Of a stretch of 41,078 bases of DNA, positions 12,261 through 41,078 are shown in pieces. The DNA comes from an uncultured Thiotrichales bacterium (lineage in GTDB: Bacteria; Pseudomonadota; Gammaproteobacteria; CAZUMV01), in assembly GCA_964621435.1 (NCBI GenBank), contig CAZUMV010000003.1, positions 1 to 41,078 on the forward strand. Reading direction: 5' to 3'. The notes under the pieces were generated by a model that saw nothing but the letters and a program-made list of their open reading frames with translations, had not been told where the DNA came from and searched no databases. A program made the position numbers and the translations under genes. Within the stretch, counting starts at the first letter, position 1, and every line of letters begins with the position of its first letter.

Positions 12261-12264
12261 GGTC

Positions 12265-25270: not shown

Positions 25271-25684
25271 TGTTCTTCTCCTTGATGCTAATTTTTATGC
25301 GGTTGAGTGTGTTTCCAGCCTCGATTAGAACCGGGCATTGTGATCAAATCCGCGATTTTTCTGCAATTCGACTTGGTTTACTTGAACATTTGTATCAAAT
25401 GTTTTGCTAAAAGCGATAACAACGGCTTAATATGAACGCGGCAGTCGCGCAGAACCGATGCCGCATAGTATAGCTCGCGTTGGCGCTTCTCTCTAGTAGA
25501 ATTGAGCTGCTTAAGCGGTAAATACTAGGCATTGTGGTAATAGATTTCCTTCAAGTGCGCTACTTTTACCGCTGATCCAATTTGATCTAGGTAGGAATGT
25601 GAACTGTTTGGCAATATAGGGTTCGTAGAAAGGTCAGTGGCGATTAATACCCGCAGAATGCTTCCTATGTGTACATTTCGGTAA

Positions 25685-26716
25685 ATGAACATCATGTTGA
25701 AAACAATGTTAGCCCTAATATTACTGTCGATATCCGGCGTCGTATCTGCGGCTTGGTATGAAGAAAAGGCCGAGATCATGGGTACGGATATTCGAGTGTA
25801 TTTGTGGCACGACGACGAATCCAAAGGGAAACGGGCAGTCACTGATGTTATGTCCGAATTTCGCCGTATCGATGCTTTGATGAGTACCTATTTGGAGTCG
25901 TCAGAATTGTCGTTAATAAATCGTCGCGCGGCGCACCAACCGGTTGCGGTGTCGGATGAGTTGTTACAGCTGATTATGCAAGCATTAGAGCTGTCAGAGC
26001 GCACTGACGGTGCTTTTGATATTACGTATGCTAGCGTTGGGTATCTTTATGACTATCGAAATGCTGTCCGACCTGATGACGCGACCATCGGCCAACGCCT
26101 TAAAGCGGTAAATTTTCGTCATGTGCGGGTAGATCAGAACAAAAGAACCATTGAATTTAATCATCCGGATGTGCGTATTGATCTCGGTGGTATCGCAAAA
26201 GGTTACGCAGTCGATCGGGCGATCACGAAGTTAACAGGGCTTGCGGTTGAACACGCAATTGTTACTGCCGGTGGTGATACGCGGGTATTGGGTCAGCATC
26301 GTGATCGACCATGGGTGGTCGGTATTCAAGACCCGCGTCTGAATGACAAAGTAGTAGCCTTGATTCCGTTGGTTGATGAGTCCATTTCAACTTCCGGAGA
26401 TTACGAAAGATACTTTGATGATAATGGGATCAGGTACCACCATATCATCGATCCGCAAACCGGCGATTCAGCGAGAGCGGTGCGGAGTGTGTCGATTTTA
26501 GGTGCCACGAGCACTTTGGCTGATGCTTTATCGACAAGTTTGTTTGTGCTTGGACTGGATGATGGTATTGAGGTAATCAATAAGATTGAAGGTTACGAAG
26601 CTATCGTGGTCGACCAGCAGGGAAAGTTGCACTACTCAACCGGGTTACAGCAGCCGGAGAAACCGGAGGGTACGGCAAAACATCAGGTGGGTGGCGTATT
26701 GTCACCGGCCAAATGA
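25685..26716 (+). CDS. apbE: FAD:protein FMN transferase (ApbE family), periplasmic
   Basis: The product has a signal peptide, 'FDITYASVGYLY', 'DLGGIAKGYAVDRA' and 'HIIDPQTG'. Confidence 0.9.
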   Translation: MNIMLKTMLALILLSISGVVSAAWYEEKAEIMGTDIRVYLWHDDESKGKRAVTDVMSEFRRIDALMSTYLESSELSLINRRAAHQPVAVSDELLQLIMQALELSERTDGAFDITYASVGYLYDYRNAVRPDDATIGQRLKAVNFRHVRVDQNKRTIEFNHPDVRIDLGGIAKGYAVDRAITKLTGLAVEHAIVTAGGDTRVLGQHRDRPWVVGIQDPRLNDKVVALIPLVDESISTSGDYERYFDDNGIRYHHIIDPQTGDSARAVRSVSILGATSTLADALSTSLFVLGLDDGIEVINKIEGYEAIVVDQQGKLHYSTGLQQPEKPEGTAKHQVGGVLSPAK

Positions 26717-26728
26717 TTAGAGGTGGTA

Positions 26729-29524
26729 ATGAAAATGCATAAATTTAAATTCACCGTATTGGTATTGTTGCAGATCGGATTGATTGCGTGTACTGCAGGT
26801 GGCAATGACAATGATGATCAAGCGGGCATAGATGGTAGCGGAGTTGAATCCAGCGACCTGGGCAGCGCTAGTTTGGTTAATGCAAATTTCTCGATCGTGT
26901 ATGTTGACCGATCGGTGGAGTCTGCTGGAAATCCTACTGACGGGATACGGTTTACGCCCGGCGGCGATCTGTATATCAAGAGCCTCGCTTCGCCGAGCGC
27001 TGAAGCTTTGAATATTACCGGAGTCTATACCGAAGGTCTTGGTGACGTCTCGGATCCGGAGGTTTCATATGATGGTAGAAGAGTGGTCTTTAGCATGCGC
27101 GGACCCGAAGACGAGACCTGGAATCTGTGGGAGTACGATAGTGACGCCGCAACTATCAGGCGCCTCATTAATAACCCTGATTTAACTGATGAGGGTGATG
27201 ATGTTGATCCTGCGTATTTGCCGGATGGTCGGATTATTTTTAGTTCAAACCGTCAGGAAAAAAGCCAGCGTTTGTTAGCCGCCGAAAACAAAGAGCCGTA
27301 CGCGTATTTAGACGAGTACGAGCGCGAGCGCACGATTGCATTGCATGTTCTCAGCAGGGATGGTGACGAGGTTTCGCAAATCTCGTTTAACCAAAGCCAT
27401 GATCGAAATCCAACAGTATTGAGCAGCGGCGCGATAATGTACGCCCGTTGGGACCACTTGGGTAACCGCAACCATTTTCCACTGTTTTTCACCAATCCTG
27501 ATGGTACCAACTTGTTTGTTCTTTATGGTGCCTTTAGTCCCGGCAACTCATTTTTGCATCCACGCGAAATGCCCGATGGAAAGGTAATATCGTCCTTAAT
27601 GCCACTTTCGGGAACCGGAGAAGGTGGTGCGCTGGTAATCATTGACGTCGAAAATTTTTCGGAAAATGATCAGCCGGCGCCAGGTCATACGGACACGGAA
27701 GTTGGGCAGCTCGGAGCAACCTTGCAAGAGATCCCCATCGATGACACGGCATCCGAGTTTGGTCGGTATACCACGCCGTTCCCGTTGTGGGATGGCACCA
27801 ACCGTGTTTTGGTTTCCTGGTCCGCCGCGCAAGCGCCTGATGAAGATAACCCCATGATGGGCGAAGATGGACCGCCACGCTATGGTATTCATATGCTCAA
27901 TCTCGATGATCAGTCATTACGCCCCATTGAGCTTGCTGCTCCCGGTAGAATTTTAACCGACCCGGTCGCGATGTTTCCACGCGCTTTGCCAAACATCATT
28001 GCAGACACTCCGGGCGACGCTGGTTTGGCCGCAGCGGGTCGAGGTATTCTCAACGTAAAAAGTGTGTATGACACCGATGATCTGGACATTATGGGTGATC
28101 GGGTTTTAATAGCGGGTGAATCGATTCCGGAAATTGACGGCGTGGCAGATGTGTTGTCGCTTAAGCAAGCGCGTGCCAACGATCGTCCGGCACGATTTGT
28201 ACGAGTCACTCGGGCGGTGCCAACACCGCCGGGCGTGACCACAGATAACGTCGGCTCCAATGACATGGAGATGCAGGAACTGCTGGGTTATTCCCGCGTC
28301 GCGCCCGATGGCTCGATTAGAATCGAGGTGCCGGCGGATACGCCACTCGCTTTGACCGTGGTTGATGCCAACGGGCGAGCGTTGCAAACGCACACAAATT
28401 GGCTGCAGGTTCGTCCTGGCGAGACCCGTACCTGTAATGGCTGTCATTCACCTCGACGTGGTAGCGCGATTAATGCCGCGCCGATTGCCGGTGACCATAG
28501 TAATACCGAGTTAGCAGGGGTTGTTGAGCCAGGTGAAAGCATGGCTGAAACTAACACCCGAATTAATCCGTCGGCGCTGAGTTTGACATCGGACATCGAG
28601 TTCGAAGACATATGGACTCTGGCTGCGAACGGGCCGGACCTGCCATTTAGTATTACCTACGCAGACCTATCTACTTTAGCGCCGACTGACGGCATTATTA
28701 ATTACCCGGAACACATCCAGCCGCTTTGGGAGCTGCATAATTGTGTTGGTTGTCATAATGGCGCAGCTGGATCGTTGGATTTAGGTAGCACGACCGCAGC
28801 GACCGGGCGTTTAACATCCTACGAACAACTCACCCTTGGTGAACCTGTTCTGGACGCGCAGGGATTGCCAATAACGTTTACTGTAAATGGCGAAGTGTTG
28901 GTGCAGCGTGAACCCGCTTTGGTTGAAATGGGATCAGCAATTAACAGCTCGCGCACCAGTCATTTAATCGAAAAGCTTTATCAAACAGAGTTGCTGGCGG
29001 ACCGAAGTTTAGCGCCGACGACGGTTAACCATAATGGTATTTTGAATGCGTCAGAACTTCGTTTGTTACAGGAGTGGATAGATCTCGGCGCACAATATTT
29101 CAATAGCCCTTATGAGAGTAATGCGGGCGATGATGGTTTTTATGCGCTTGGCGAGATTCGAAGCTTCCCGGCAGGTCTGAGCGAAGATGTGTTTGCAGAG
29201 AGTGTACAACCGGTGTTGTTGCAGCGTTGCGGTAGTTGTCATGGTGCTGTTGGTGATGATGGTGAGGCGAATGGTGGTTTTTCCGCCAAGCGATTCGTGC
29301 TGACAGGCGCGTTAGAAGGGGATTTCAATATAACCAGAGCAATGGTTAGCAATATTTGTGACGCAGAGAGTTCCCTGTTGTTGACAATGCCCAGTATCAT
29401 TCAGCAGGGAAATATTGCCCATCCGGCGATCAATGGACAACCGGTATTACAGAGTACAGATAATGACTTTCAAACGATTTTTACGTGGATTACAGCGGCA
29501 GCAGCTAGTAACAACTGTCCCTAA
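26729..29524 (+). CDS. Large lipoprotein: TolB/PD40-like beta-propeller N-terminal half plus a C-terminal half with three CXXCH motifs in PSCyt1-like domains
   Basis: The lipobox is 'GLIAC'. PD40-like blades include 'PEVSYDGRRVVFSMRG' and 'PAYLPDGRIIFSSNR'. The motifs are CNGCH (28433-28447), CVGCH (28742-28756) and CGSCH (29228-29242). The last two lie in 'P.L...C..CH ... L...E...L..WI' contexts. Confidence 0.7.
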   Translation: MKMHKFKFTVLVLLQIGLIACTAGGNDNDDQAGIDGSGVESSDLGSASLVNANFSIVYVDRSVESAGNPTDGIRFTPGGDLYIKSLASPSAEALNITGVYTEGLGDVSDPEVSYDGRRVVFSMRGPEDETWNLWEYDSDAATIRRLINNPDLTDEGDDVDPAYLPDGRIIFSSNRQEKSQRLLAAENKEPYAYLDEYERERTIALHVLSRDGDEVSQISFNQSHDRNPTVLSSGAIMYARWDHLGNRNHFPLFFTNPDGTNLFVLYGAFSPGNSFLHPREMPDGKVISSLMPLSGTGEGGALVIIDVENFSENDQPAPGHTDTEVGQLGATLQEIPIDDTASEFGRYTTPFPLWDGTNRVLVSWSAAQAPDEDNPMMGEDGPPRYGIHMLNLDDQSLRPIELAAPGRILTDPVAMFPRALPNIIADTPGDAGLAAAGRGILNVKSVYDTDDLDIMGDRVLIAGESIPEIDGVADVLSLKQARANDRPARFVRVTRAVPTPPGVTTDNVGSNDMEMQELLGYSRVAPDGSIRIEVPADTPLALTVVDANGRALQTHTNWLQVRPGETRTCNGCHSPRRGSAINAAPIAGDHSNTELAGVVEPGESMAETNTRINPSALSLTSDIEFEDIWTLAANGPDLPFSITYADLSTLAPTDGIINYPEHIQPLWELHNCVGCHNGAAGSLDLGSTTAATGRLTSYEQLTLGEPVLDAQGLPITFTVNGEVLVQREPALVEMGSAINSSRTSHLIEKLYQTELLADRSLAPTTVNHNGILNASELRLLQEWIDLGAQYFNSPYESNAGDDGFYALGEIRSFPAGLSEDVFAESVQPVLLQRCGSCHGAVGDDGEANGGFSAKRFVLTGALEGDFNITRAMVSNICDAESSLLLTMPSIIQQGNIAHPAINGQPVLQSTDNDFQTIFTWITAAAASNNCP

Positions 29525-30032
29525 ATTTTTATATGTGATTTGTATCGCTTTTGTGTTGCTCGCTTGTGACCCGGTAGATCCGGTAGGTGAAAATACCGCA
29601 TTCGCCGGACGCAGCTTATGTTTTGAGAACTATCAGTTTTGCATAGATCCGATTTTTCACGCCAATTTACTTGGCAGTGCCGGGAGCGTTAACTGTTCTT
29701 CTAGCGGGTGCCATGATACCAATGCCGGGTCCGGTGGTGGTTTTAAAGTATTTTTATCGCCGGCATTGAATTCAGAAGAAATGCTGTCCAATTTTTATAC
29801 AGCTCAAGCGTTCGCTAACTTTAGCACACCATCTGATTCAAAGCTTTTGCTCGAACCACTTACTGGAACGTTTTCTGTAACAGGTAGTCACGCTGGCGGA
29901 GATATATTATTCAACCGGTCAGATCCTTGTTATTTAGCCATAATCGACTGGATTAATGAGCAGGTAAATGACGAAAACAGCAGTAGTTGTGGGCTATGCA
30001 CGCCGCCAACTCTGAGTGCCTGCGGCTATTAG
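29463..30032 (+). CDS. Small lipoprotein paralogous to the C-terminal domain of the preceding protein (CX4CH variant)
   Basis: The lipobox is 'VLLAC'. 'CSSSGCHDTNAGSGGGFKVF...SKLLLEP...IIDWI' aligns with 'CGSCHGAVGDDGEANGGFSAKRFVL...SSLLLTMP...IFTWI' in the upstream ORF. The start is uncertain, with 29463 ATG preferred. Confidence 0.5.
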   Translation: MTFKRFLRGLQRQQLVTTVPKFLYVICIAFVLLACDPVDPVGENTAFAGRSLCFENYQFCIDPIFHANLLGSAGSVNCSSSGCHDTNAGSGGGFKVFLSPALNSEEMLSNFYTAQAFANFSTPSDSKLLLEPLTGTFSVTGSHAGGDILFNRSDPCYLAIIDWINEQVNDENSSSCGLCTPPTLSACGY

Positions 30033-30083
30033 TCTGCAGTAGATTCAAGTAGAATTGACAGTTATCCAAAGGGACTTGTAGTC

Positions 30084-30836
30084 GTGATAAAAACTTGCCC
30101 GCGAGCATCAATTCTACTAATTGCGTTGTTATTCTGTGCTGACGGCTCTATTGCCGCGGACACACAGCTATTGCGCGTGCAAGTTACCGAACCGTATCTG
30201 GAGATGTACACGGGTCCAGGCCGGGGTTTTCCGGTGTTCCATGCAGTTGAGCGAGGCGCCTGGGTAGAAATTGTAAAGCGGCGAACAGATTGGTTTGAAG
30301 TTCGGACAAGACGCGGCAAAACTGGTTGGGTAAAACGTAGTGCACTTGAAAAAACCCGGTCAATGACTGGTTCACAATTGGTTTTTGATGGCGCCGGAAA
30401 AGGAGATTTATTCGGCCGGCCTCTGGAAATAGGGTTGGTCGGCGGCGCTTTGGAAAGTGATCCTTTGTTAGGTGCGCGGCTTGGGTATTATCTGACCGAA
30501 AGCATTTCGGTAGAACTCGTACTGAATCATGTGCCGGGAAAGTTTTCGCGCTCAATAATTTATGGCGGAAATATACAAGTACATCCGTGGCCGCAATGGC
30601 GCATATCGCCATATTTTTCATTGGGGTCAGGGGTTATTAGAAATGAGCCGAAAGCAACTTTGGTTGGTGTGAACAATGTTGATGCGACAGTTTGGAGTGC
30701 GGCCGCCGGTGCGCGTTATCGAATCAATGAAAAATTCATGTTTCGGGTTGAGGTTCGGGATCACCAGGCATTGGTAAATGACGCTAATACGCAGAACCTG
30801 CTGGAGATAACGGCCGGGTTTTCGTTTTTTTATTAG
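30084..30836 (+). CDS. Outer-membrane beta-barrel protein with an N-terminal bacterial SH3 domain
   Basis: A signal peptide is followed by the SH3b-like 'LEMYTGPGRGFPVFHAVERGAWVEIVKRRTDWFEVRTRRGKTGWVKRSAL'. Alternating amphipathic strands follow, ending in 'AGFSFFY' with an aromatic C-terminus. Confidence 0.62.
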   Translation: MIKTCPRASILLIALLFCADGSIAADTQLLRVQVTEPYLEMYTGPGRGFPVFHAVERGAWVEIVKRRTDWFEVRTRRGKTGWVKRSALEKTRSMTGSQLVFDGAGKGDLFGRPLEIGLVGGALESDPLLGARLGYYLTESISVELVLNHVPGKFSRSIIYGGNIQVHPWPQWRISPYFSLGSGVIRNEPKATLVGVNNVDATVWSAAAGARYRINEKFMFRVEVRDHQALVNDANTQNLLEITAGFSFFY

Positions 30837-30837
30837 G

Positions 30838-31494
30838 ATGATGGGAATGATTAATAACACAATAAAAATAATTTTGATCGTAGCTGGCTTTTCGCTAAGT
30901 AGCGTGCCCGCCGCTGAAGAAGTCGAAGACTCGCTTGCCGATGTTGAGCAGGTGGTAGTGCCGGAGGTTTACCGGCGCACGGTGAAAGCGCCAAAAATAG
31001 ATGCGCGAGACTTTGAGTTGACTTTATATGGTGGCGTGCTTGGTATGGAAAATTTTAGCTCCAGTCCGGTTGGTGGCGTGCGGCTGGCATATCATATTAC
31101 CGAAGATTTTTTCCTCGAGGCCGGGGTCGCGGCTTCGACAATCAACGATGAAGCGTTTCGACAATTCGGCTTGAATTTGTTTCCTGCAGAAGATGAAAGT
31201 CTGATTTATTATGATCTGGCGGTTGGCTATAACGTGCTCCCGGGTGAATTCTTTTGGGGCGAGAACTATGCAATTCCAACTCATCTGTACGTTATTGCAG
31301 GGGTAGGGAGTATCACTATTGTTGATGAAGATTTTTTTAGTGTTAATTTCGGCGCCGGGGTGCGCATGTTAGTAAGTGAGCGTTTCACCTTGCACCTTGA
31401 TGTACGTGACCGGATTTTTGAAAATACCCTGTTGGGTAGTGAGGACCTTACCAATAATCTTGAATTAACTGTTGGTGTTGGATTGCAATTTTAG
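30838..31494 (+). CDS. Small outer-membrane beta-barrel protein
   Basis: The product has a signal peptide and alternating hydrophobic strands, and it ends 'LTVGVGLQF'. It starts 1 nt after the upstream stop. Confidence 0.58.
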   Translation: MMGMINNTIKIILIVAGFSLSSVPAAEEVEDSLADVEQVVVPEVYRRTVKAPKIDARDFELTLYGGVLGMENFSSSPVGGVRLAYHITEDFFLEAGVAASTINDEAFRQFGLNLFPAEDESLIYYDLAVGYNVLPGEFFWGENYAIPTHLYVIAGVGSITIVDEDFFSVNFGAGVRMLVSERFTLHLDVRDRIFENTLLGSEDLTNNLELTVGVGLQF

Positions 31495-31505
31495 GAAGCT
31501 ATTAT

Positions 31506-32018
31506 ATGAGTCTTATAAGCAAACGCGTTGTAGTACTAATGTGCTTGTTGGCACTGCCGGCCTTGGCGGTTGGTAAATCAAGCATCGTAGGAAAAACTGC
31601 TCCGAATTTCAGGGCGCTTGGCCTGGATGGGTTTGGCTACAGTCTCGATCAATTTCAAGGCAAGGTTATTATGTTGAACTTCTGGGCGAGTTGGTGTGGT
31701 CCGTGTCGACAAGAAATGCCACCGCTGGAGAATCTTTATCGACAGTACCGTGGTCTCGGGTTTGTGGTTGTGGGGGTTAATGTCGATGAAACTCTAGAGC
31801 CAGCAAAGAAAATGATCGCCAAGCTTGCCGTTAGTTATCCAAACCTTTACGACAGTGATAAAAACATTAGTCGGGGTTATAACGTCAGCACGATGCCAAT
31901 GACGGTGATTATTGATGGCACGGGTAAAGTTCGTTATGTGCATCATGGCTATAAGTCGGGTTATATGGAAAAGTATCAGCGCGAGGTGCGTCAACTTTTA
32001 GCGGAGCTGGGTCGATGA
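31506..32018 (+). CDS. Periplasmic TlpA/ResA-like thiol:disulfide oxidoreductase
   Basis: The product has a signal peptide, and the active site is 'FWASWCGPCRQEMP' (WCGPC at 31692-31706). Confidence 0.85.
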   Translation: MSLISKRVVVLMCLLALPALAVGKSSIVGKTAPNFRALGLDGFGYSLDQFQGKVIMLNFWASWCGPCRQEMPPLENLYRQYRGLGFVVVGVNVDETLEPAKKMIAKLAVSYPNLYDSDKNISRGYNVSTMPMTVIIDGTGKVRYVHHGYKSGYMEKYQREVRQLLAELGR

Positions 32019-32251
32019 AAAATTTAGCAGTATTACTCTCAATATTACTTATGACTGGTTGTAGCAGCATCGAAAAGGTGCTTTCTCCAGAGCCCTGGGT
32101 TCCGCCCTATGAGCGCGGTGAGCTAGCTCAGCCAATCATGCAGTTTAGCCGCAACCCGTTGTCGGATAAATTTCGTCAGCATGTTTTAGATACCCGCGAA
32201 GGGGCTCGAGGTGCAACCGTGACTAAAGGTGGTGGGTGTGGTTGTAATTAG
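32015..32251 (+). CDS. DUF4266-like small lipoprotein ending in GGGCGCN
   Basis: The lipobox is 'LMTGCSS' and the product is 78 aa. 'PWVPPYERGELA' and the C-terminal 'KGGGCGCN' match my recollection of the DUF4266 family. The start overlaps the TlpA stop. Confidence 0.72.
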   Translation: MKNLAVLLSILLMTGCSSIEKVLSPEPWVPPYERGELAQPIMQFSRNPLSDKFRQHVLDTREGARGATVTKGGGCGCN

Positions 32252-33332
32252 TCGTTTAATGGTTGTTGTGATGCTGGTAATAGTCGGGCAGGCCGGAGCT
32301 GAAACTCTGCCAGAAGACCGGATCCAGGTTATGTACCACAGTTATGATGGTGGCGGGGTTACCGTTGACGGTCCGGCTGTTTTAGTGCGCAAAGAGCTTA
32401 AAGATCAATATTCCGTGAACGTGGGCTATTACCGGGACTCTATTAGTGGTGCCTCACCGGATGTAATCGCTACCGCGAGCCCGTACACTGAAAATCGCGA
32501 TGAGTTATCAATTGGTCTCGACGCGCTCCTGGGTAGCAGCTTGGTGTCGCTTACCTACATTAAAAGCGAAGAAAACGATTACGATGGCAATACCGTGCAG
32601 TTCGGAATTTCACAAAGCTTCTTTTCCCAGATGAGCACCTTGAGTCTAGGCTACTCGGTCGGCAATGACACGGTTGAACGAGTGGATAATGATTTTTCCG
32701 AAGATCTTAAGCGCTATCAATTTAGTGTCGGTTTAACGCAAGTTTTAACCAGCACCATGTTAATGAATCTAAGTGTCGAGGGTATTACTGACGAAGGATT
32801 TTTGAGCAATCCGTATCGCTCTGTTCGTATATTTGGTTCTTTCGCCGGGCCTGAGGTTTACCCCGATACTAGAACGAGCGCGGCGTATGCGATTCGGGTT
32901 AAGAAACTATTGTGGGGCGATGATGTCGTAACACTGGGTTACCGTTTCTATGACGACAGTTGGAGTATCACCGCGCATACCGGTGAAGTTGGCTTCACTC
33001 GAACCATGTCGGATCGATTGGTGCTCGATCTGGATTACCGTTTTTACGATCAATCCAGCGCGTCATTCTTCAGTAGCGATTTTCAAGGTTTGTTTCGCTT
33101 CATGGCCAGCGATAAAGAGCTGAGTTCATATCAGAGTCATACCGTGGGACTTGGTCTCACTTATGAGCTTTTTAACAATTATTTTTATGGTTTTGACCGT
33201 GGTGAGCTGGGCTTAACATATGATTTCAGGATCAATGAATATGATAACTACTTCGCACCGAACGCTAGTACTTCGGAGCTGTACGAGTTTGACGCAAATG
33301 TTTTCAATATTAACCTCTCGTTGTTTTACTAA
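32229..33332 (+). CDS. DUF3570-like predicted outer-membrane beta-barrel protein carrying an ApbE-type flavinylation motif
   Basis: A signal peptide is followed by 'IQVMYHSYDGGGVTVDGPAVLV', then beta-rich sequence ending 'INLSLFY'. The motif D-S-I-S-G-A-S lies at 32436-32456. The start is uncertain, either GTG 32229 or ATG 32259. Confidence 0.68.
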   Translation: MVGVVVISRLMVVVMLVIVGQAGAETLPEDRIQVMYHSYDGGGVTVDGPAVLVRKELKDQYSVNVGYYRDSISGASPDVIATASPYTENRDELSIGLDALLGSSLVSLTYIKSEENDYDGNTVQFGISQSFFSQMSTLSLGYSVGNDTVERVDNDFSEDLKRYQFSVGLTQVLTSTMLMNLSVEGITDEGFLSNPYRSVRIFGSFAGPEVYPDTRTSAAYAIRVKKLLWGDDVVTLGYRFYDDSWSITAHTGEVGFTRTMSDRLVLDLDYRFYDQSSASFFSSDFQGLFRFMASDKELSSYQSHTVGLGLTYELFNNYFYGFDRGELGLTYDFRINEYDNYFAPNASTSELYEFDANVFNINLSLFY

Positions 33333-33361
33333 CGAGATACGGAAATACGGAGATTTCAAAA

Positions 33362-34105
33362 ATGGTTGGCGTTAAAAAACCACTGATAATTTTATTCACA
33401 CTTTGTTTTTCGGCCGTTGTGTTTGCCGCTGAAGGCGAATCAACGACGACCGACATCGGTGATGAGGATAGTTCTTACACTATATTCGAAGGTGATACCG
33501 AGAGCTTGCGAGATGGCGAGTTAACAGCAGAGGGCGAGGCTGCGCTGCGCGAAGCACAAGCTAATGATGCCAATCAAACTACCTCAACCTTGCGTCCCGC
33601 AGAAAGTGATATCGGGCAGCCGAGTCAGGTTGATCTTGATAATGCCGACGAGCTATTAGCGGCGCAAGGTCTGGATGCAAATATTCAGTCATTGAAAGAA
33701 GAAGTTCTCGTGTTGAATCGTGAGCTCTTTTCGTTAGAAGAGGAATTGCTGTTCCCCTCGAACACCCAGTTTGCGGTATACGTGTCCATTGATGTGGGTG
33801 AATTTTTTGATATGGAATCGGTACGGGTTATTCTGGACAATAAGCCGGTTGCAAGCTATCTCTACACCAAGCGTGAGTCAGATGCGTTAATGCGGGGTGG
33901 AGTGCATCGTATTTACATGGGCAACCTGACGGCCGGATCGCACGAGTTGGTAGCGTACTATACCGGTCGCGGACCGCGCGGCCGCGATTTCAAGCGTGCC
34001 ACCAAACGTACCGTTAATAAAGAAATTGGCCCTAAATATGTCGAGCTCAAAATTTCTGATCGCGCTGGAAAAAAGCAATCCGAATTTATAGTTAAAGAGT
34101 GGTAG
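33362..34105 (+). CDS. Secreted protein with acidic N-terminal region, coiled coil and beta-rich C-terminal domain; unknown function
   Basis: GGAG lies 9 nt upstream of the start, and the signal peptide ends 'VVFA-AEG'. A heptad-like stretch 'IQSLKEEVLVLNRELFSLEEELL' is present. Confidence 0.55.
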   Translation: MVGVKKPLIILFTLCFSAVVFAAEGESTTTDIGDEDSSYTIFEGDTESLRDGELTAEGEAALREAQANDANQTTSTLRPAESDIGQPSQVDLDNADELLAAQGLDANIQSLKEEVLVLNRELFSLEEELLFPSNTQFAVYVSIDVGEFFDMESVRVILDNKPVASYLYTKRESDALMRGGVHRIYMGNLTAGSHELVAYYTGRGPRGRDFKRATKRTVNKEIGPKYVELKISDRAGKKQSEFIVKEW

Positions 34106-34129
34106 CGATCTAATCGTCGCCCGATTCCC

Positions 34130-36031
34130 ATGAGAACTTTCCAATCCATCGCTTTGCTCGTGTGCTTATTAAGCGTGAGCGCCTGGCAAGTTGTCTCGGC
34201 GGAGGCGAGCGAAGGAGATATTATTCGAGATCTCCCGTATGGAGAAGTGTTGTTCGATTTTTACCAGCAAAATTATTTTTTGTCGTTGGTGAATTTGATC
34301 AAAGCGCAAAATGACAATAGCGTGCCGCAGCACGCCGGTGAGGCCGAACTACTGCGCGGAGGTTTATACTTATCCTATGGTATGCGCACTCGCGCCGAAA
34401 ACATTTTCGAACAAGTGCTGGCAACCGAACAAAGTCCGGAAGTGAAGAATCGTGCTTATTATTATCTGGCGCGAATAGCCTACCAACGGGGGTTACTCGA
34501 TGATGCCTTGCTAAATTTGGCGAAAATTCGTGGCGATCTGCCGCAAACACTACGTGGTCGAGATGCACTCATGGCAGCGATTATAGAGATCAAACAAGAA
34601 AAGTATCGTGATGCTTTTACTCGTTTAGATGGCTGGCAAGGTGAAGCGGATATCCGTCACTATGTTGCTTATAACAAGGGCATCGCTGCATTGCGCCTGG
34701 GGCAAACTGACACCGGTACTGATTTGCTGGACTTGTTGGGGCGCGAAAACTTTCGCTCCGAGGAAACCGAACTACTGGCGCTTAAGGATCGGGCAAACCT
34801 TGCGATCGGGTTACATTTTTTGCGCCAGGATAGTGCGTCAGAGGCAAAACCATTTCTGGATCGGGTGCGACTGTCAGGTCCCTATTCTAGCAAGGCCTTG
34901 TTAGCGGCGGGTTGGTCGGATGCCCGTAATGAGTTTTACCAGCCCGCGTTAATTCCCTGGAACGAGTTAGCGGGGCGCAATTTGCTTGATCCGGCGGTGC
35001 AAGAATCTTTATTCGCGATACCGTATGCGCTTGCCAATGCTGGCGGTCTAAAGCAAGCTGCAGAAGCTTATCAAGATGCGCTCGATGTTTTCAAACAAGA
35101 GAAGGCAAACTTGATAGCGGCTATCGAGGGGCTAGAAGATAGTAACTATCTCGAGGTGTTATTGAGTAGCGCGCAAGATATTGAACTGGGTTGGTTCAGA
35201 GAATTGCAGGTCGTGGAAGACGCACCACACCCGTGGTATCTCGATGAGCTACTAGCTTCACACCGCGTCCAAGAATCCTTGAAGAATTATCGAGATCTGT
35301 TGTTTCTGGATCTTAACCTTAAAACGTGGGAAGAATCGATGGATTCTTTCACTAATATGGTCGAATTGCGCCGCGAAAAGCACGCCGCCGTGGCGCCGCG
35401 TGCACAGGCAGTGCTGCAAGCGGGTGAGCAAAATAATCTCCAGAATAAATTTGCCAAGCTCAGCGAAGTATATTTAAGTGCCGACGAAAAACAAAAACTG
35501 CGCTTGCTGGCAACACCAGCAGAGCTCGAGAAGCTACAGCGCATGGATAAATTGCAGACCATGATCGCGGCACATCCTAATGCTAAAGCGCACGACTATC
35601 TGCTCCGCCGGGTAGATTTTTTAAAAGGGATTTTGTTTTGGGAAATTTACAATACGCTCGATAATCGCAGCCAACGTTCTGGTAAAGAGCTGGCCGCTTT
35701 GGAGGCCGAGTTCGAGCAAAGTCGCGACTTTATAGACAGTATCAATAATTTGTTGCGCGAATTGCCAAATGGTTTTTCCGGTTTTGCTGAAAAAATACAA
35801 TCCAAGCGCGCGGGTATTGGTGCTACCAGAGTCAAGGTTGATCAGGTTTTGGCGGAACAAAAAGGACAGCTAACACAGCGTATCGTGGCGGAGTTGCAAG
35901 GGCATAAAAAGCGCATAGAAGAATTACAAATTCAGGCGGCTTTTGCGCTGGCGCAGATTTATGATAAAGATAGCGAAAAAGAACCGGATGAACAGGAAGA
36001 GCAACCACGCAACCGCGGGGTCGCGAGATGA
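34130..36031 (+). CDS. Periplasmic TPR-like / coiled-coil protein (633 aa); unknown function
   Basis: The signal peptide ends 'VVSA-EAS'. TPR-like helical repeats include 'AELLRGGLYLSYGMRTRAENIFEQVL' and 'YYLARIAYQRGLLDDAL'. The C-terminal region is a long coiled coil. Confidence 0.6.
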   Translation: MRTFQSIALLVCLLSVSAWQVVSAEASEGDIIRDLPYGEVLFDFYQQNYFLSLVNLIKAQNDNSVPQHAGEAELLRGGLYLSYGMRTRAENIFEQVLATEQSPEVKNRAYYYLARIAYQRGLLDDALLNLAKIRGDLPQTLRGRDALMAAIIEIKQEKYRDAFTRLDGWQGEADIRHYVAYNKGIAALRLGQTDTGTDLLDLLGRENFRSEETELLALKDRANLAIGLHFLRQDSASEAKPFLDRVRLSGPYSSKALLAAGWSDARNEFYQPALIPWNELAGRNLLDPAVQESLFAIPYALANAGGLKQAAEAYQDALDVFKQEKANLIAAIEGLEDSNYLEVLLSSAQDIELGWFRELQVVEDAPHPWYLDELLASHRVQESLKNYRDLLFLDLNLKTWEESMDSFTNMVELRREKHAAVAPRAQAVLQAGEQNNLQNKFAKLSEVYLSADEKQKLRLLATPAELEKLQRMDKLQTMIAAHPNAKAHDYLLRRVDFLKGILFWEIYNTLDNRSQRSGKELAALEAEFEQSRDFIDSINNLLRELPNGFSGFAEKIQSKRAGIGATRVKVDQVLAEQKGQLTQRIVAELQGHKKRIEELQIQAAFALAQIYDKDSEKEPDEQEEQPRNRGVAR

Positions 36032-38808
36032 CTATTAAGTTAAATCTCAAACAAATCTTTGTGCCGGTGTTACCGTTGGTTTTAATGGGGTGTGCGTTCG
36101 AAAAAGGTGACCGGGCGGCAACTTTAAGCGACTTGTATGACCGACCGATTCCGATAATCGATGAGCAGCCAATGGCGAAAAGCCTGGAGTTGGCGGAGCA
36201 GTCTTATCGTCAGATGCTTGATCTGGATTCGAGTTCGGAGATGCGGCCCGAAGCATTGCGGCGTTTGGCTGATATTGTCTCCGACGTTGATAACATCATA
36301 AATGACAACGACGAAGTTGATCAAGAAGCACTCACAGCGGCGACCGAGCTGTATCAAGAGGCGCTGGATGATTATCCAAAGTACCGTTCTCGTGATCATA
36401 TTCTCTATCAACTTGCACGAATCCAGGACCAGAATGGCAAGCCCGACGAGTCGTATTTGCTGTTGGATGAATTAATAAGTAAACATCCCGACTCGGAATT
36501 TTTTCAAGAAGCGCAGTTTCGTCGTGCCGAATATTTGTTTATTGAAAAAGAATATGAGCAAGCGCAAACCGCCTATGCAGCGGTAATCGCCACAGACGCG
36601 GATGAGAAATTTATTGAGCCAGCCATATACAAAAAGGGTTGGTCATTGTTTAAGCAAAATGAATACGAGCTGGCAGTAAACGAGTTTACTACCCTGTTGG
36701 ATGAACGTGTTGTTGAAGGCGCACGGGATCTTGAAAAACTGTCGCGGGCTGAACGGGAACGTATTGATGATTCTCTGCGCGGAATTAGTTTGAGTTTTGT
36801 CTATCAGGAAGGTGTTGATTCGGCGTTGGCGTATTTCGACAAACGTGGTGCCCGTAAATACGAAGATCTTGTTTATACCCATCTGGCTGAATATTACATC
36901 GACAAAGAGCGTTTTACCGATGGTGCGGATACCTTTGCTGGATTCTTGTACCGCAATCCTTGGCATGAGAATGCTGCCGATTTTCAAGCGCGACGCATTG
37001 CGACTTTGAAAAAAGGCGATTTTCCCAGCCTTGAGTTAGAGGCGCGGAAAGAATTTGTTGCCTTGTTTGATGTCGACTCAGAGTATTGGGAATACTATCC
37101 GGTCGCGGACAATCAGCATATTGTCGACGAAGTAAAGATCCACGTGGTCGATTTGGCCAACCATTATCAGTCCTTGGCGCAGGTCGATAATAAAACTGAA
37201 AATTATCAGGAAGCCGAAGTTTGGTATAAGCGCTTTCTAACGTCATTTCCGAAAGATGAAAAGGCGCCGGAGATCAATTATTTATTGGCCGAGTCCTACT
37301 ATCAAAACGGGCGCTTCCGTGATTCTGCGAAAGCCTATGAAGCAGTGGCTTATGACTATGATGCCCATCCAAAATCTGCCGAAGCCGGTTATGCAGCGTT
37401 ACTTGCCTATCAGCAGGTCATTGATGCTAACGCGGGTGACGATGCGGCTGCCAGCGGTAAAGAATTCACCGCAAGTGCAGTGCAGTTCGAAAAAGCATTT
37501 CCCAAGCACCCAAAGGCCAATCAGGTTTTGGTGAGCGTCGCACAAAACCAGTTTGATCAACGTAATTATGATGAAGCGATGGCGCTGGCTGAACGGTTAA
37601 TCGAAAAACAACCACCAACCGGCGAAGCCGAAAGGGGTGTCGCCTGGACCATTCTAGCCAACTCCAATTTTGAGCAAGATGCATTTGTGGCGGCGGAAAA
37701 GGCCTATGTCGAAGCGTTAGCCTTGGTACCGGCTGGTGATGTATTGCGCAACGACTTAACCGAAAACCTCTCAATTGCGGTTTATCGACAAGCAGAGCAA
37801 GCCAAAGAAAAAGGTGATACGGCAGGTGCTATTGCAGCATTCTTGCGGGTCAATGAAGTTGCCCCGGGTACCGAGGTAGCGGTAACCGCGCAATATGATG
37901 CCGCTGCATTATATATCGCTGATGCCAAATGGCAGCCGGCAATTCCGATTTTAGAGCGGTTCCGAGCGTCCTATCCGAGCCATGAGCTGCAAAAGGAAGT
38001 CGATAAAAATTTGGCCACTGCCTACTTGAAAACGAATCAACCAACCAAGGCGGCGGCAGAGTTCCAGCGTCTGGCGGTGTCAGGCGAGTCCGCGGAAATC
38101 CGTCGAGAAGCGATTTTGCAGGCATCTGATTTATATGCTGATGGAGGTGATCAAAATCGTTCCATCGCGATGCTGGAACAATTCGTTCAGGATTTTCCGT
38201 CGCCAGCGGAGCCGGCCATGGAAGCGGCGGCAAAGTTAGCGACACATTATGAACGGTTGTTTGGTGTGGAAGGTGCCTATACCTGGCACGAAAAAGTTGT
38301 GGCGCTTAATCCTGGAAGTGGTGGTAATGATCGAACGCGCTTCTTGGCGGCGAAATCCAGCCTTTCGCTCGTAAAACCATCGGTTGAGGCTTATCAACGG
38401 GTACAGCTTGTGACACCATTGAAAGAGACCTTGCGCGAGAAAAAGCAATTAATGGAAGCGGCATTAGATAAATATGCAGAGTTATCGGCCTACGGAATTG
38501 CCGAGATTTCAACCGAGGCCGCCTATCAAACCGGTTTTATCTATGATGATTTCGCCGAAGCCATTATGGATTCGGAGCGCCCGGCCGAGCTTGATGCGGA
38601 CGCCTTGGAAGAATATGAAATCTTGCTTGAAGAGCAGGCGGATCCATTTCTTGAAAAAGCCATCGATGCGCATGAGGTCAATGTTGGTCGCATTAATCAG
38701 GATGTCTACGATGAATGGGTTAAGCGCAGCTTGGTTGATCTGCAAGCGCTGCTGCCGGCCCGTTACAATAAACAGGAGCGCATCAATGCTGTTACGCGTA
38801 TTCATTAG
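36028..38808 (+). CDS. Large TPR-repeat lipoprotein (926 aa), YbgF/BamD-like repeats
   Basis: The lipobox is 'VLMGC'. There are many TPR units, for example 'ILYQLARIQDQNGKPDESYLLLDELISKHPDSEF' and 'INYLLAESYYQNGRFRDSAKAYEAV'. The start overlaps the upstream stop. Confidence 0.7.
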   Translation: MTIKLNLKQIFVPVLPLVLMGCAFEKGDRAATLSDLYDRPIPIIDEQPMAKSLELAEQSYRQMLDLDSSSEMRPEALRRLADIVSDVDNIINDNDEVDQEALTAATELYQEALDDYPKYRSRDHILYQLARIQDQNGKPDESYLLLDELISKHPDSEFFQEAQFRRAEYLFIEKEYEQAQTAYAAVIATDADEKFIEPAIYKKGWSLFKQNEYELAVNEFTTLLDERVVEGARDLEKLSRAERERIDDSLRGISLSFVYQEGVDSALAYFDKRGARKYEDLVYTHLAEYYIDKERFTDGADTFAGFLYRNPWHENAADFQARRIATLKKGDFPSLELEARKEFVALFDVDSEYWEYYPVADNQHIVDEVKIHVVDLANHYQSLAQVDNKTENYQEAEVWYKRFLTSFPKDEKAPEINYLLAESYYQNGRFRDSAKAYEAVAYDYDAHPKSAEAGYAALLAYQQVIDANAGDDAAASGKEFTASAVQFEKAFPKHPKANQVLVSVAQNQFDQRNYDEAMALAERLIEKQPPTGEAERGVAWTILANSNFEQDAFVAAEKAYVEALALVPAGDVLRNDLTENLSIAVYRQAEQAKEKGDTAGAIAAFLRVNEVAPGTEVAVTAQYDAAALYIADAKWQPAIPILERFRASYPSHELQKEVDKNLATAYLKTNQPTKAAAEFQRLAVSGESAEIRREAILQASDLYADGGDQNRSIAMLEQFVQDFPSPAEPAMEAAAKLATHYERLFGVEGAYTWHEKVVALNPGSGGNDRTRFLAAKSSLSLVKPSVEAYQRVQLVTPLKETLREKKQLMEAALDKYAELSAYGIAEISTEAAYQTGFIYDDFAEAIMDSERPAELDADALEEYEILLEEQADPFLEKAIDAHEVNVGRINQDVYDEWVKRSLVDLQALLPARYNKQERINAVTRIH

Positions 38809-39421
38809 AGCGCTGGCTGTTTTGTTGCTGATCTTGCTGAGCGCATGTGCGGGCGGGCCGGGCTCCGGTGGTTCAAGTGGTAAAGAAAGCTCGGTAAAGA
38901 TACCTACAGGGCAAAAATCTGCAATGGTTGATGAGGCCGAGTTATCGGCTGCTGACCAAATTGCATTGCAACGTGCAGTGGCAGCCCTTAATGCGGCTGA
39001 TTTTTCCGGTGCTATCGCTGAATTTAAAGGCTTGTCATTACGAAACCCGAAACTCGCTATGCCTTATATCAATCTTGCCATCGCCTATCGTGGCCAAAAC
39101 GATACCGATGCGGCCATGCGGTCGGTAATACAGGCATTGAATTTGTCGCCGAATAGTCCCGAAGCACACAATTTACAAGGCGTACTGTGGCGAGATACTG
39201 GCGAATTTACTAAAGCTAGAGATAGTTATGCCAAGGCCCTCGGTGCAAATGGAGACTGGCCTGATGCGCAGCTAAATCTTGGCATTTTATGTGACTTGTA
39301 TTTACAAGATCTGGCTTGTGCAAAAAAGCATTATGAAGCCTATCTGGATTTATCGGATGAGGAAGATCGCAAAGTGAAAGGTTGGCTGATCGAACTGGAG
39401 CGCAGGATGAAGAAAAAATGA
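38786..39421 (+). CDS. Small TPR lipoprotein (211 aa)
   Basis: ATG 38786 has GGAG 8 nt upstream, and the lipobox is 'LLSAC'. TPR units include 'YINLAIAYRGQNDTDAAMRSVIQALNLSPNSPEAHNLQGVLWRDTGEF'. Confidence 0.7.
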   Translation: MLLRVFIRALAVLLLILLSACAGGPGSGGSSGKESSVKIPTGQKSAMVDEAELSAADQIALQRAVAALNAADFSGAIAEFKGLSLRNPKLAMPYINLAIAYRGQNDTDAAMRSVIQALNLSPNSPEAHNLQGVLWRDTGEFTKARDSYAKALGANGDWPDAQLNLGILCDLYLQDLACAKKHYEAYLDLSDEEDRKVKGWLIELERRMKKK

Positions 39422-39792
39422 TTTTGAGAACTAAGTTACAGACTTTATTGATTATGGTCTTTTTTCTTTTGCTTGGGTCACCGATAATAGGCGGCGCAGC
39501 GGAATCGCCCGCTATTGACGAACCGGGTTCAGAAGAGCCGGCGCAAACCGAGTACTTTGAAGAAGATACTGTGCTCAATATGGATGGCATGGCGGTGACC
39601 GGAAATCAAGAGTTACCCAAATCTCTCATGATCGTGCCGTGGCAAGAGCCCGGTTCTGGTGATTTTTTCGCCAGTGATTTCGAGAGTTTGATAGATGTTG
39701 ACCCAGAAGCTGTTGATCGGCGTGAATTTAAGCGCGAACTTGATTATTACCGGGTACGTGCCGGACAGAAACTTGATGCGAACAGTGAATAA
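39418..39792 (+). CDS. Small secreted acidic protein (124 aa); unknown function
   Basis: The ATG overlaps the upstream stop (ATGA), and a signal peptide 'LLIMVFFLLLGSPIIGGAA' is present. I recognised no domain. Confidence 0.5.
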   Translation: MILRTKLQTLLIMVFFLLLGSPIIGGAAESPAIDEPGSEEPAQTEYFEEDTVLNMDGMAVTGNQELPKSLMIVPWQEPGSGDFFASDFESLIDVDPEAVDRREFKRELDYYRVRAGQKLDANSE

Positions 39793-39830
39793 CACCCGCA
39801 ACGCAGAAAAAAAAGTGGAGAAGAAAGGAT

Positions 39831-40472
39831 ATGTTTGAAACGATAGCTGGTTTTTTTAAAGATGGTGGTACTTTTATGATACCGATCGCCGTCGTATTGG
39901 CACTCGGGTTGGCAATAGCGGGTGAGCGTTGGGTTTATTTAACACGTGCCCGGGTGAGTAATTTGATGCGTTGGAAGAAGCTGCAGCCATTACTTGAAAA
40001 AGGTGAGCTCAGGTCAGCACTAAATACTTCGAACGGATCAAATACGGCCATTGACAAGATTTTGACCTACGGCCTTATGCGCGCGTCTACTTCCAAGAAT
40101 AGTGCCGAAGTCGAAATGGCCATGGAAGAAGGCCTGATGGAAGTCATGCCGCGACTCGAAAAGCGCACGCATTATCTTGCAACATTGGCCAACATTGCCA
40201 CCTTGCTGGGTTTGCTAGGGACCATTATGGGACTTATTAGAGCGTTTACTGCGGTAGGCGAGGCAAATCCTGCGGATAAAGCGGATTTATTGTCAGCAAG
40301 TATCTCGGTGGCCATGAATACCACAGCGTTTGGTTTGATGGCTGGTATTCCTTTGCTGTTATTGCACGCTTATCTAACGACCAAGACCACGACCGTAATA
40401 GATAGTCTTGAAATGGCGACCGTAAGAATCATGAATTTGATTACTGGTCACTCTGTCAAAAAAGCGCAGTAA
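39831..40472 (+). CDS. MotA/TolQ/ExbB-family proton channel protein
   Basis: The product has three TM segments, and 'LATLANIATLLGLLGTIMGLIRAF' and 'AMNTTAFGLMAGIPLLLLHAYL' match the ExbB/TolQ core. Confidence 0.9.
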   Translation: MFETIAGFFKDGGTFMIPIAVVLALGLAIAGERWVYLTRARVSNLMRWKKLQPLLEKGELRSALNTSNGSNTAIDKILTYGLMRASTSKNSAEVEMAMEEGLMEVMPRLEKRTHYLATLANIATLLGLLGTIMGLIRAFTAVGEANPADKADLLSASISVAMNTTAFGLMAGIPLLLLHAYLTTKTTTVIDSLEMATVRIMNLITGHSVKKAQ

Positions 40473-40478
40473 GTTACT

Positions 40479-41030
40479 ATGCTTCGTAAACGCAGGCACT
40501 CCCGCTATAAGCAGGATGCAGAACTCAATATAACTGCCTTCATGAACTTAATGGTGGTGCTGGTGCCGTTTCTGTTGCTGATGGCAGTGTTTACGCGCTT
40601 GACAGTTATTGAGTTGGCGCTGCCGGGCCCACCGTCCGAGTTGGAAGAACTGCCTGAAGAGCCACCAATTGAACTTGAGCTAGTGCTGCGCGAAAATCGT
40701 ATAGATATTCAAGATCGTGGTTCGGCATTAATCGGCGAATATGCAGCAATCGGTGGTAAGGATGACTTCAAATCTGTGACTGCCAAGTTGCGCCAGATAA
40801 AAGCCCAGTTTCCGGAAGTTAAAACCGCTTCGATACTCGCCGAAGACGATGTGCCATATGACCGCATCGTGCAAGTCATGGAGATCATGCGAAATTACAA
40901 TACGACAATTGATGGCGAATTAGTGCAACAGGAAATGTTTCCGGACATCGCGCTCGGAAAGGCTAACGTTGAAAACTTGCCTGAAGGTGCGCGTGACGTG
41001 GTGCAGCCATACGATCAGGTGAGTCAATGA
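40479..41030 (+). CDS. ExbD/TolR-family protein with Asn replacing the conserved TM Asp
   Basis: 'ELNITAFMNLMVVLVPFLLL' aligns with E. coli ExbD 'DINVTPFIDVMLVLLIIF'. The periplasmic domain contains 'ILAEDDVPYDRIVQVMEIM'. Confidence 0.85.
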   Translation: MLRKRRHSRYKQDAELNITAFMNLMVVLVPFLLLMAVFTRLTVIELALPGPPSELEELPEEPPIELELVLRENRIDIQDRGSALIGEYAAIGGKDDFKSVTAKLRQIKAQFPEVKTASILAEDDVPYDRIVQVMEIMRNYNTTIDGELVQQEMFPDIALGKANVENLPEGARDVVQPYDQVSQ

Positions 41031-41078
41031 GGCAATCACGTCGGGCGCGCCGAATGAGCATGCATCATGCGCGGAGCA
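41027..41078 (+). CDS. Start of a second probable ExbD/TolR-family gene (3' end outside the window)
   Basis: The ATG overlaps the upstream stop (ATGA). The Arg-rich N-terminus 'MRQSRRARRMSMHHARS' is typical of ExbD/TolR cytoplasmic tails. Only 17 codons are visible. Confidence 0.4.
   Translation, partial: MRQSRRARRMSMHHARS

Follow-up and report, generated by a model that had tools for sequence, protein, structure and literature searches.

The stretch analysed here, hereafter the window, comprises 41,078 nucleotides of contig CAZUMV010000003.1 (assembly GCA_964621435.1, an uncultured Thiotrichales bacterium), and ends in a locus of 16 consecutive plus-strand genes, running from position 25685 to the window edge. 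Comparison with related loci gives good support to the view that this locus is one conserved neighbourhood of two described modules, both of which are of unknown function. On the basis of its protein sequences, the first half includes the flavinylation cluster ApbE/DUF3570/thioredoxin/DUF4266 that Méheust et al. described (2021; PMC8238504), and assignment of the second half to the gammaproteobacterial Agl-Glt core complex published by Luciano et al. (2011; PMC3169522) is supported by gene order and protein length. What appears to be new is the linkage of the two known modules, each module itself having already been published. Domain families were called with Pfam and NCBIfam profile models, and the genes of the first half are the following.

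25685..26716, plus strand: ApbE, a periplasmic FAD:protein FMN transferase with a signal peptide (judged by eye); Pfam ApbE, 280 bits.
26729..29524, plus strand: hydrazine synthase alpha-like (HZS-like) three-haem propeller lipoprotein; Pfam HZS_alpha, 73 bits, and weak PD40.
29463 (or 29535)..30032, plus strand: c205, a small lipoprotein; alignment of five homologues.
30084..30836, plus strand: SH3-OMP, an outer-membrane protein in which a small beta-barrel follows a periplasmic SH3 domain; SH3_4, SH3_3 and OMP_b-brl.
30838..31494, plus strand: OMP2, a small outer-membrane beta-barrel; TIGR04565 (OMP_myx_plus), 132.7 bits against a cut-off of 60, and Pfam OMP_b-brl.
31506..32018, plus strand: Trx, a periplasmic TlpA/ResA-like thioredoxin with a WCGPC motif; Pfam Redoxin, 97.6 bits, and ResA subfamily, 114.8 bits.
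32015..32251, plus strand: DUF4266 lipoprotein with a C-terminal GCGCN (CXC motif); Pfam DUF4266, 75.5 bits.
32238..33332, plus strand: DUF3570 outer-membrane barrel with an ApbE target motif; Pfam DUF3570, 136.6 bits.

The second half continues on the same strand, as follows.

33362..34105, plus strand: p247, a secreted protein; no family match, conserved C-terminal region.
34130..36031, plus strand: GltC-position protein of 633 residues, secreted, with weak tetratricopeptide repeat (TPR) and helical regions; match in order and length, present in 55/55 loci.
36028..38808, plus strand: GltD-position TPR lipoprotein of 926 residues; many TPR families, YbgF-type TPR at 114.9 bits.
38786..39421, plus strand: GltE-position TPR lipoprotein of about 211 residues; TPR families.
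39418..39792, plus strand: small secreted protein of 124 residues at the position of the "additional gene"; no family match, present in 52/55 loci.
39831..40472, plus strand: ExbB/TolQ/AglR-type proton channel of 213 residues; MotA_ExbB, 95.6 bits.
40479..41030, plus strand: ExbD1, of the ExbD/TolR type, at the AglQ position, 183 residues; ExbD, 57.5 bits.
41027..41078, plus strand: ExbD2, of the ExbD/TolR type, at the AglS position, cut by the window end; first 17 codons only.

The linkage of the two halves was examined in the best 80 matches to window-like proteins for each of two anchors. With p247 as the anchor, 80 loci from different GTDB species were annotated with the window proteins over a flank of 10 kb each, and were considered informative where at least 9 kb of sequence was available upstream (n=60) or where sufficient sequence was available downstream (n=55). 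First-half genes were present in 60/60 (the HZS-like gene in 52, Trx in 53 and SH3-OMP in 45), and the full core was found in all 55 with enough downstream sequence, the small gene being present in 52 of them. Further, a thioredoxin gene lies directly upstream of p247 in 55 of the 80 loci, even where the redox operon holds another copy. With SH3-OMP as the anchor, in 80 metagenome loci, the order HZS-SH3OMP-OMP2-Trx-DUF4266-DUF3570 recurs wherever the sequence is long enough; the core is visible in 21 (21/21 informative loci), the other 59 ending before the core position, and none of the 80 provides a counter-example to the linkage. Two genomes reached with DUF3570 as the anchor, at 44-48% identity, both possess the whole gene set, one of them in the exact order of the window and the other with a peptidase/LemA insertion between the modules. 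At L166:11259-13802, on a complete-looking contig of 3.57 Mb, Peptidase_M48 and LemA are carried by the opposite strand between DUF3570 and ApbE-Trx-p247, with the two modules still next to each other. The initial annotation of this DNA had taken a consistent lack of co-occurrence of the two halves elsewhere as the sign of two unrelated operons, and they are found together in every informative related locus, from both anchors.

With regard to gene order, type A loci, to which the window belongs, read ApbE-HZS-c205-SH3OMP-OMP2-Trx-DUF4266-DUF3570, then p247. Type B corresponds to the type A block with ApbE shifted to its end, and in type C the HZS operon points away from another one, which ends in (ApbE)-Trx-p247-core. 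No fewer than three arrangements, among them one with divergent halves and one with two inserted genes, retain the linkage, and orthologues from linked loci share about 40-60% identity. Downstream of the core, the gene following gltG belongs to 31 families in 55 loci, which argues that the neighbourhood is not kept by general synteny alone.

The core complex, as defined by Luciano et al., consists of gltC, gltD, gltE, aglR, aglQ, aglS and gltG, and forms in all non-Deltaproteobacteria a single locus together with one additional gene, which has no homologue in Myxococcales; its function in Gammaproteobacteria was stated as unknown in 2011 (PMC3169522). Table S3 of that study, with genomes of Methylibium, Cellvibrio, Hahella, Marinobacter, Saccharophagus, Shewanella frigidimarina and Teredinibacter, lists proteins of 550-692 (GltC), 933-1016 (GltD) and 162-263 residues (GltE), a gap of one locus tag, and then 217-272 (AglR), 169-188 (AglQ), 162-185 (AglS) and 321-371 residues (GltG). 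The window and a close relative give, in the same order, 633, 926, about 211, 124, 213, 183, 168 and 326 residues. As both order and lengths fit Table S3, the second half was filed under the core complex of Luciano et al., and the resemblance to Agl-Glt that the initial annotation had pointed out turned out to be a match with the published core. The same annotation had listed a tiny secreted protein among the features that recall the Myxococcus core. Its identification as GltF was considered and rejected, since this 124-residue protein sits at the position of the additional gene without Myxococcales homologue (PMC3169522).

The end of the core was completed from relatives. The 17 residues of the cut ExbD2 are identical to the start of a 168-residue ExbD in L001, a metagenomic contig 84-87% identical to the window, which continues past the window end with this ExbD, a TonB-like protein of 326 residues and then unrelated genes. 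A TonB-like protein of about this size directly follows the second ExbD in L001, in L003 and in 55/55 loci, at the very place where the initial annotation had proposed looking for a TonB/TolA/GltG-like gene. The 326-residue protein has a transmembrane helix at its N-terminus, connected by an (E/K)P-rich linker to a C-terminal domain, and passes the NCBIfam model of the AgmX/PglI C-terminal domain (66.9 bits, cut-off 40). It scores 31.5 bits with TonB_Cterm and 21.9 against a cut-off of 650 with GltG, and its match to GltJ is also below the cut-off. A weak match to NCBIfam gliding_GltE (32.6 bits, cut-off 225) was obtained for the GltE-position protein, and NCBIfam at E <= 10 gave no further gliding-specific match for GltC, p247, the small gene, ExbB or ExbD. 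The GltD-like protein has 2357 homologues at E<=1e-10, and the relatives found are about 40% identical. An exact-sequence look-up of the window ExbD returned no record, and tblastn searches of the GltD-like protein and p247 against plasmids gave no match.

Among solved structures, the closest relatives of the ExbB protein are TolQ (E 2e-8) and ExbB (E 2e-6), and the PDB holds no AglR/Q/S or Glt protein. A transmembrane Asp is essential in ExbD/TolR proteins. In ExbD2, it is kept in 60/60 homologues, and in ExbD1 the position is occupied by Asp in 41 and by Asn in 20 of 61 homologues, the window protein belonging to the latter (FMNLMVV). This distribution suggests that some lineages may operate a stator with one protonatable and one non-protonatable ExbD partner.

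In the first half, all four families of the flavinylation cluster are present and adjacent, with the Pfam scores listed above, and the redox part, which the initial annotation had placed in an uncharacterised machine, corresponds to a described assembly. According to Méheust et al. (PMC8238504), flavinylation of a Chlorobium DUF3570 protein by its ApbE at [S/T]GA[S/T] motifs was shown experimentally, and a C-terminal CXC motif was described for DUF4266, the function of the DUF3570 cluster being left open. The same paper reports the membrane electron donor DsbD in 227 of 543 DUF3570 clusters, and hence as an optional component. The window DUF3570 protein carries a single target motif, D67-S-I-S-G-A-S73, of which D67, A72 and S73 are invariant across 35 homologues, many relatives displaying S-S-A-S at the motif. 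The GCGCN C-terminus of DUF4266 is identical in 14/14 homologues. Degenerate DUF3570 motifs were noticed in L026, L034 and L042 (DRVSAAA, DQVRAPD and EQVRESS, respectively), and no ApbE was detected within 10 kb there; these sequence features are consistent with a loss of flavinylation in that sublineage. The AlphaFold2 (AF2) model of the window DUF3570 protein is a 16-stranded barrel with a predicted local distance difference test score (pLDDT) of 87.9 and a predicted template modelling score (pTM) of 0.82. Its best PDB matches are the PelB and PgaA porins, OmpG, FadL and the barrels of TonB-dependent receptors, and the C-terminal residue is aromatic, as in outer-membrane proteins. In this model, the target serine is found where the loop joining strands 3 and 4 begins, on the barrel side with longer loops, which would correspond to the cell surface or the lumen.

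The HZS-like lipoprotein, of 933 residues, harbours CxxCH haem motifs at residues 571, 674 and 836, and aligns lengthwise with hydrazine synthase alpha (PDB 5c2v_A, E 4e-13). The alignment takes in the propeller, the middle domain and the C-terminal haem domain, with the middle-domain CxxCH conserved; however, the enzyme reads CSGCHYGSY where the window protein reads CNGCHS, so that the aromatic residues after the motif, including one tyrosine that acts as a haem ligand in hydrazine synthase, are absent here. A true hydrazine synthase was therefore rejected, the score with the NCBIfam hydrazine_alpha model being 71 against a cut-off of 800. Pfam scans of the locus detected no genes for the beta and gamma subunits of hydrazine synthase. 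In a 2025 survey, none of the top structural matches to hydrazine synthase alpha had an experimentally confirmed function. Next to the HZS-like gene, a divergent trio is present in 50 of the 60 GTDB loci (e.g. L003:3103-8325). One member, of about 375-450 residues, contains a single CxxCH and is weakly similar to PSCyt2/PSD2; another, of about 820-1000 residues, combines two CxxCH with a Laminin_G_3 domain; the remaining one, of about 540-600 residues, bears a twin-arginine (Tat) signal (RRDFLRQG). The trio is absent from the window, whose lineage has lost or moved it.

The remaining proteins of the first half are c205, SH3-OMP and OMP2. The small lipoprotein c205, which has no Pfam or NCBIfam family match and is confined to loci of the window's arrangement (type A), displays in an alignment of five homologues a CSxSGCH motif (C-x4-CH), an H-x-GGD motif and a Cys-rich C-terminus, SxCGxCxxPxLxxCG[YF]. 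SH3-OMP reaches 45 bits with the OMP_myx_plus model, below the cut-off of 60. OMP2 possesses an N-terminal extension (residues ~40-70), in which QV[IV]xPE[IV]ERRE[IV]...IDTEDFE is conserved across 92 homologues, and which is a candidate site for docking of the TonB-like protein.

In addition to the published components, p247 is a conserved member of the core block, absent from the 2011 list and always the first gene of this block. The N-terminal region of this 247-residue secreted protein is acidic and variable; a long helix comes next, and the conserved C-terminal part is predicted by modelling to fold as a beta-sandwich. The C-terminal 145 residues are 55-66% identical across orders, and the family numbers 1334 representatives at 50% clustering, from at least 593 GTDB species. 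No sequence match was obtained in Pfam, NCBIfam or the PDB. The AlphaFold model, of moderate confidence (pLDDT 66.5), presents the long helix followed by the beta-sandwich, and a fold search with it returned only generic beta-sandwiches at E >= 0.1, with no significant PDB match. Some p247 homologues (P0064 and P0109) are named "AraC family transcriptional regulator" in NCBI, which is probably a propagated misannotation because the protein has a signal peptide, no helix-turn-helix match, and a model consisting of a helix plus a beta-sandwich.

The layout of the locus, established from the open reading frame listing and inspection of start codons, agrees with the initial description of 16 plus-strand genes in tight succession. 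Gaps between genes are of 1-51 nt, the widest extending from 30032 to 30084, and six overlaps are sure, namely Trx/DUF4266, DUF4266/DUF3570, GltC/GltD, GltD/GltE, GltE/small gene and ExbD1/ExbD2. A seventh, HZS/c205, exists only if c205 starts at the ATG at 29463. A signal peptide or lipobox is present at the start of 13 products, as previously counted, and the lipoboxes of the locus read LIAC, LLAC, MTGC, LMGC and LSAC (both judged by eye). The locus had also been called operon-like for want of a visible internal terminator, with which the layout is compatible. Terminator-like sites are nevertheless not enriched in a scan of the window (21 versus 17.3 +/- 4.3 expected), so that a missing internal terminator fits an operon and does not demonstrate one. 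Promoter-like matches are also at chance level in the window scan. A single operon of 16 genes is in any case not the conserved feature, as the halves are divergent in most relatives. No family match, and no riboswitch, was obtained in an Rfam search of the whole window, and no Fur-type signal was found. The locus is preceded by the following region.

25271..25684, no strand: intergenic region of 414 nt separating apbE from the divergent citrate synthase gene, and likely the promoter region of the locus.

Upstream of 25685, the window carries housekeeping genes, namely htpG, recJ, prfB, lysS, surE-pcm-nlpD and the divergent citrate synthase gene. Between recJ and prfB, an open reading frame of 963 codons (5409-8300) with weak dockerin-type and acidic-repeat matches may code for a secreted repeat protein. 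An adenylate/guanylate cyclase fused to an FHA domain, and an AAA_22 ATPase adjoining a T2SSB-domain protein, a pair with the looks of the ExeA/ExeB type, are listed at 1199-2167 and 11475-13992 (-).

The explanation that we favour, by a modest degree of confidence over its negation, is that of a core-complex and redox neighbourhood in which a proton-driven TonB-like machine acts on an outer-membrane platform that bears cofactors. The ExbB/ExbD1/ExbD2 stator, powered by proton flow, would drive the TonB-like protein, which, with the TPR lipoproteins, p247 and the GltC-like protein as its scaffold, would reach the outer membrane and perform mechanical work on the three barrels and the haem lipoprotein. 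Such work could gate the cofactor-bearing parts or alter their exposure, the flavin barrel and the haem lipoprotein being candidates, and electrons might travel from thioredoxin to the CXC motif of DUF4266 and on to the flavin of DUF3570, as well as through the haems. A parallel is found in Myxococcus, where AglR interacts with GltG (PMC3169522; Islam et al.), and where AglRQS together with GltG/J are proposed to act on a GltA/B/H outer-membrane platform that controls lipoprotein exposure. A bolder version can be put forward tentatively, as a possibility that we hold to be rather unlikely to prove right in full: the gammaproteobacterial core would be the motor of a new class of trans-envelope machines, whose TonB-like transducer mechanically controls an outer-membrane redox platform. 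This platform would then be made of the covalently flavinylated 16-stranded barrel, the multihaem propeller lipoprotein and the two small barrels.

Several points weigh against a machine that unites the two modules. The physical coupling of motor and redox proteins is something that we infer; each module also occurs alone, and in most relatives the halves are divergently transcribed as separate units. Neither DsbD nor another inner-membrane electron donor is encoded anywhere in the 41-kb window. In the available sections of PMC8238504, DUF3570 clusters are described elsewhere with no mention of ExbB or TonB-like partners, and for Myxococcus Agl-Glt no redox partners are reported. Orthology to the M. 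xanthus proteins is suggested by literature tables, one domain model and sub-threshold matches, and the sampled loci, being the best matches to window-like proteins, are biased to one gammaproteobacterial lineage and exclude the genomes named by Luciano et al. (2011).

Some of these observations lend themselves to the reading that the halves are two independent envelope systems, neighbours through shared ancestry or regulation, with no physical or mechanistic coupling: the divergent units of most relatives, the occurrence of each module alone in other phyla, and the origin of all sampled loci from one broad gammaproteobacterial group would all be expected from it. Yet the linkage holds in 60/60 and 21/21 informative loci, surviving inversion, reordering and insertion amid changing flanks, between orthologues that are only about 40-60% identical, and a thioredoxin copy is maintained upstream of p247 in 55/80 loci despite a second copy in the redox operon. 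We thus regard such independence as unlikely. An energised uptake system, in which the TonB-like protein would open the DUF3570 or OMP2 barrel and a metal or other solute would undergo reduction or oxidation at the envelope, in the manner of reductive iron assimilation, draws on the TonB-like architecture with ExbB/ExbD, on the resemblance of the DUF3570 model to transport barrels, and on the conserved N-terminal extension of OMP2 as a possible docking strand. In the same vein, 25 DUF3570 clusters are reported to adjoin VIT1 iron transporters (PMC8238504). We consider this reading quite improbable, as the locus holds no plug-domain receptor, inner-membrane transporter or periplasmic binding protein, displays neither a Fur-type nor a riboswitch signal, and includes a large TPR scaffold untypical of uptake systems.

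Analogy with Myxococcus leads to a further reading, in which the motor and barrels would form a surface-exposure or secretion device that flips or releases the haem lipoprotein, the flavin and thiol proteins serving for its maturation. According to a proposal by Islam et al., protein secretion might require no more than the core complex, and GltA/B/H/K would control the exposure of a lipoprotein, CglB; here, the HZS-like protein is a lipoprotein, always encoded first in the redox operon, and a ResA-like thioredoxin fits cytochrome c maturation. The homology of the barrels to GltA/B/H is, however, only putative, and DUF3570 is itself a flavoprotein and no obvious maturation factor, so that we attach little probability to this device. 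A Tol-Pal-like system for envelope integrity or division, with an accessory function in the repair of oxidative damage, is very hard to sustain. The best scores of the ExbB and ExbD proteins are indeed those with the TolQ and TolR models, the GltD-like protein exceeds the cut-off of the YbgF-type TPR model, and a propeller protein is present; but the Tol scores fall far below the cut-offs (59 versus 221 for TolQ, 27 versus 127 for TolR and 21 versus 343 for TolB), and neither TolA nor an OmpA-like Pal is encoded. The initial annotation, which saw in the locus a mirror of Tol-Pal "part for part", is not followed on this point.

The interest of the linkage lies in the fact that the function of the ancestral core complex, which is behind Myxococcus gliding, has been open since 2011, and that of the DUF3570 flavinylation system since 2021. 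As probable obligate neighbours in hundreds of gammaproteobacterial species, the two offer each field a concrete set of partners, two systems of unknown function are turned into one testable hypothesis, and the linkage suggests an outer-membrane redox device energised by protons. We found no report in the literature searched that links the core complex with the DUF3570 cluster: mentions of DUF3570 in the accessible texts come with no ExbB, TonB-like or Glt protein, the Glt papers (PMC3169522; Islam et al.) do not mention redox partners, and a full-text search for the locus tags neighbouring the 2011 cores (Maqu_1603, Sde_2962 and others) gave no match. If the bolder version of the favoured explanation were true, the energy of the membrane would be linked with electron transfer at the outer membrane or across it, and the ancestral job behind the gliding and spore-coat machines of Myxococcus would be identified. 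Unannotated conserved components are added as well, namely the p247 family, the SH3-barrel/OMP2 pair, and the haem/LamG/Tat trio of the relatives, and an annotation error is flagged for the p247 homologues filed under an AraC regulator name.

Among the closest known systems is the core complex of Luciano et al. (PMC3169522), known from Gamma- and Betaproteobacteria, Geobacter and Fibrobacter, with which the locus shares the order GltC-GltD-GltE-[small gene]-AglR-AglQ-AglS-GltG, the protein lengths, the confinement to one locus, and a last gene for a TonB-like protein with an AgmX-type C-terminal domain. It differs in that p247 comes first and that a haem/flavin/thiol/barrel module is linked, neither of which figures in the 2011 description. 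The Agl-Glt and Agl-Nfs machineries of M. xanthus resemble it through their TolQR-like motor, TonB-like transducer, periplasmic TPR scaffold and small outer-membrane barrels, OMP2 belonging to the very family that NCBIfam names OMP_myx_plus. On the other hand, no GltF/H/I/J/K was recognised in the locus (Pfam and NCBIfam scans finding no GltI-, GltJ- or GltK-like gene in it), nor the AglZ/MglA platform or CglB, and its redox proteins have no counterpart in these machineries. The host organisms of this locus type are not known to glide. Compared with the cluster of Méheust et al., the DUF3570 protein here has one SGAS site, whereas two target motifs are reported for its Chlorobium counterpart (PMC8238504); moreover, the DUF3570 set here is always accompanied by an HZS-alpha-like cytochrome and two small barrels, and is also linked to an ExbBD/TonB-like complex.

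Likeness to Tol-Pal and TonB-ExbBD resides in the channel of the MotA/ExbB family, the ExbD/TolR partners, the Pro-rich transducer of the TonB type and the YbgF-type TPR, while two distinct ExbD paralogues and very large TPR proteins set the locus apart. Tol-Pal, TonB uptake and hydrazine synthase were rejected because their defining features were tested for and not found. For TonB nutrient uptake, there is no TonB_dep_Rec or Plug match in the locus or its relatives, and the ExbB equivalog score is 40 against a cut-off of 206; for Tol-Pal, TolA and Pal are missing and the TolQ, TolR and TolB equivalog scores are those given above. A last comparison concerns the MtrCAB porin-cytochrome conduits, which combine an outer-membrane barrel with lipoprotein or periplasmic redox cofactors. 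The present locus departs from them in that the cofactor of the barrel is predicted to be a covalent flavin, and in the association of the whole with a proton-driven motor.

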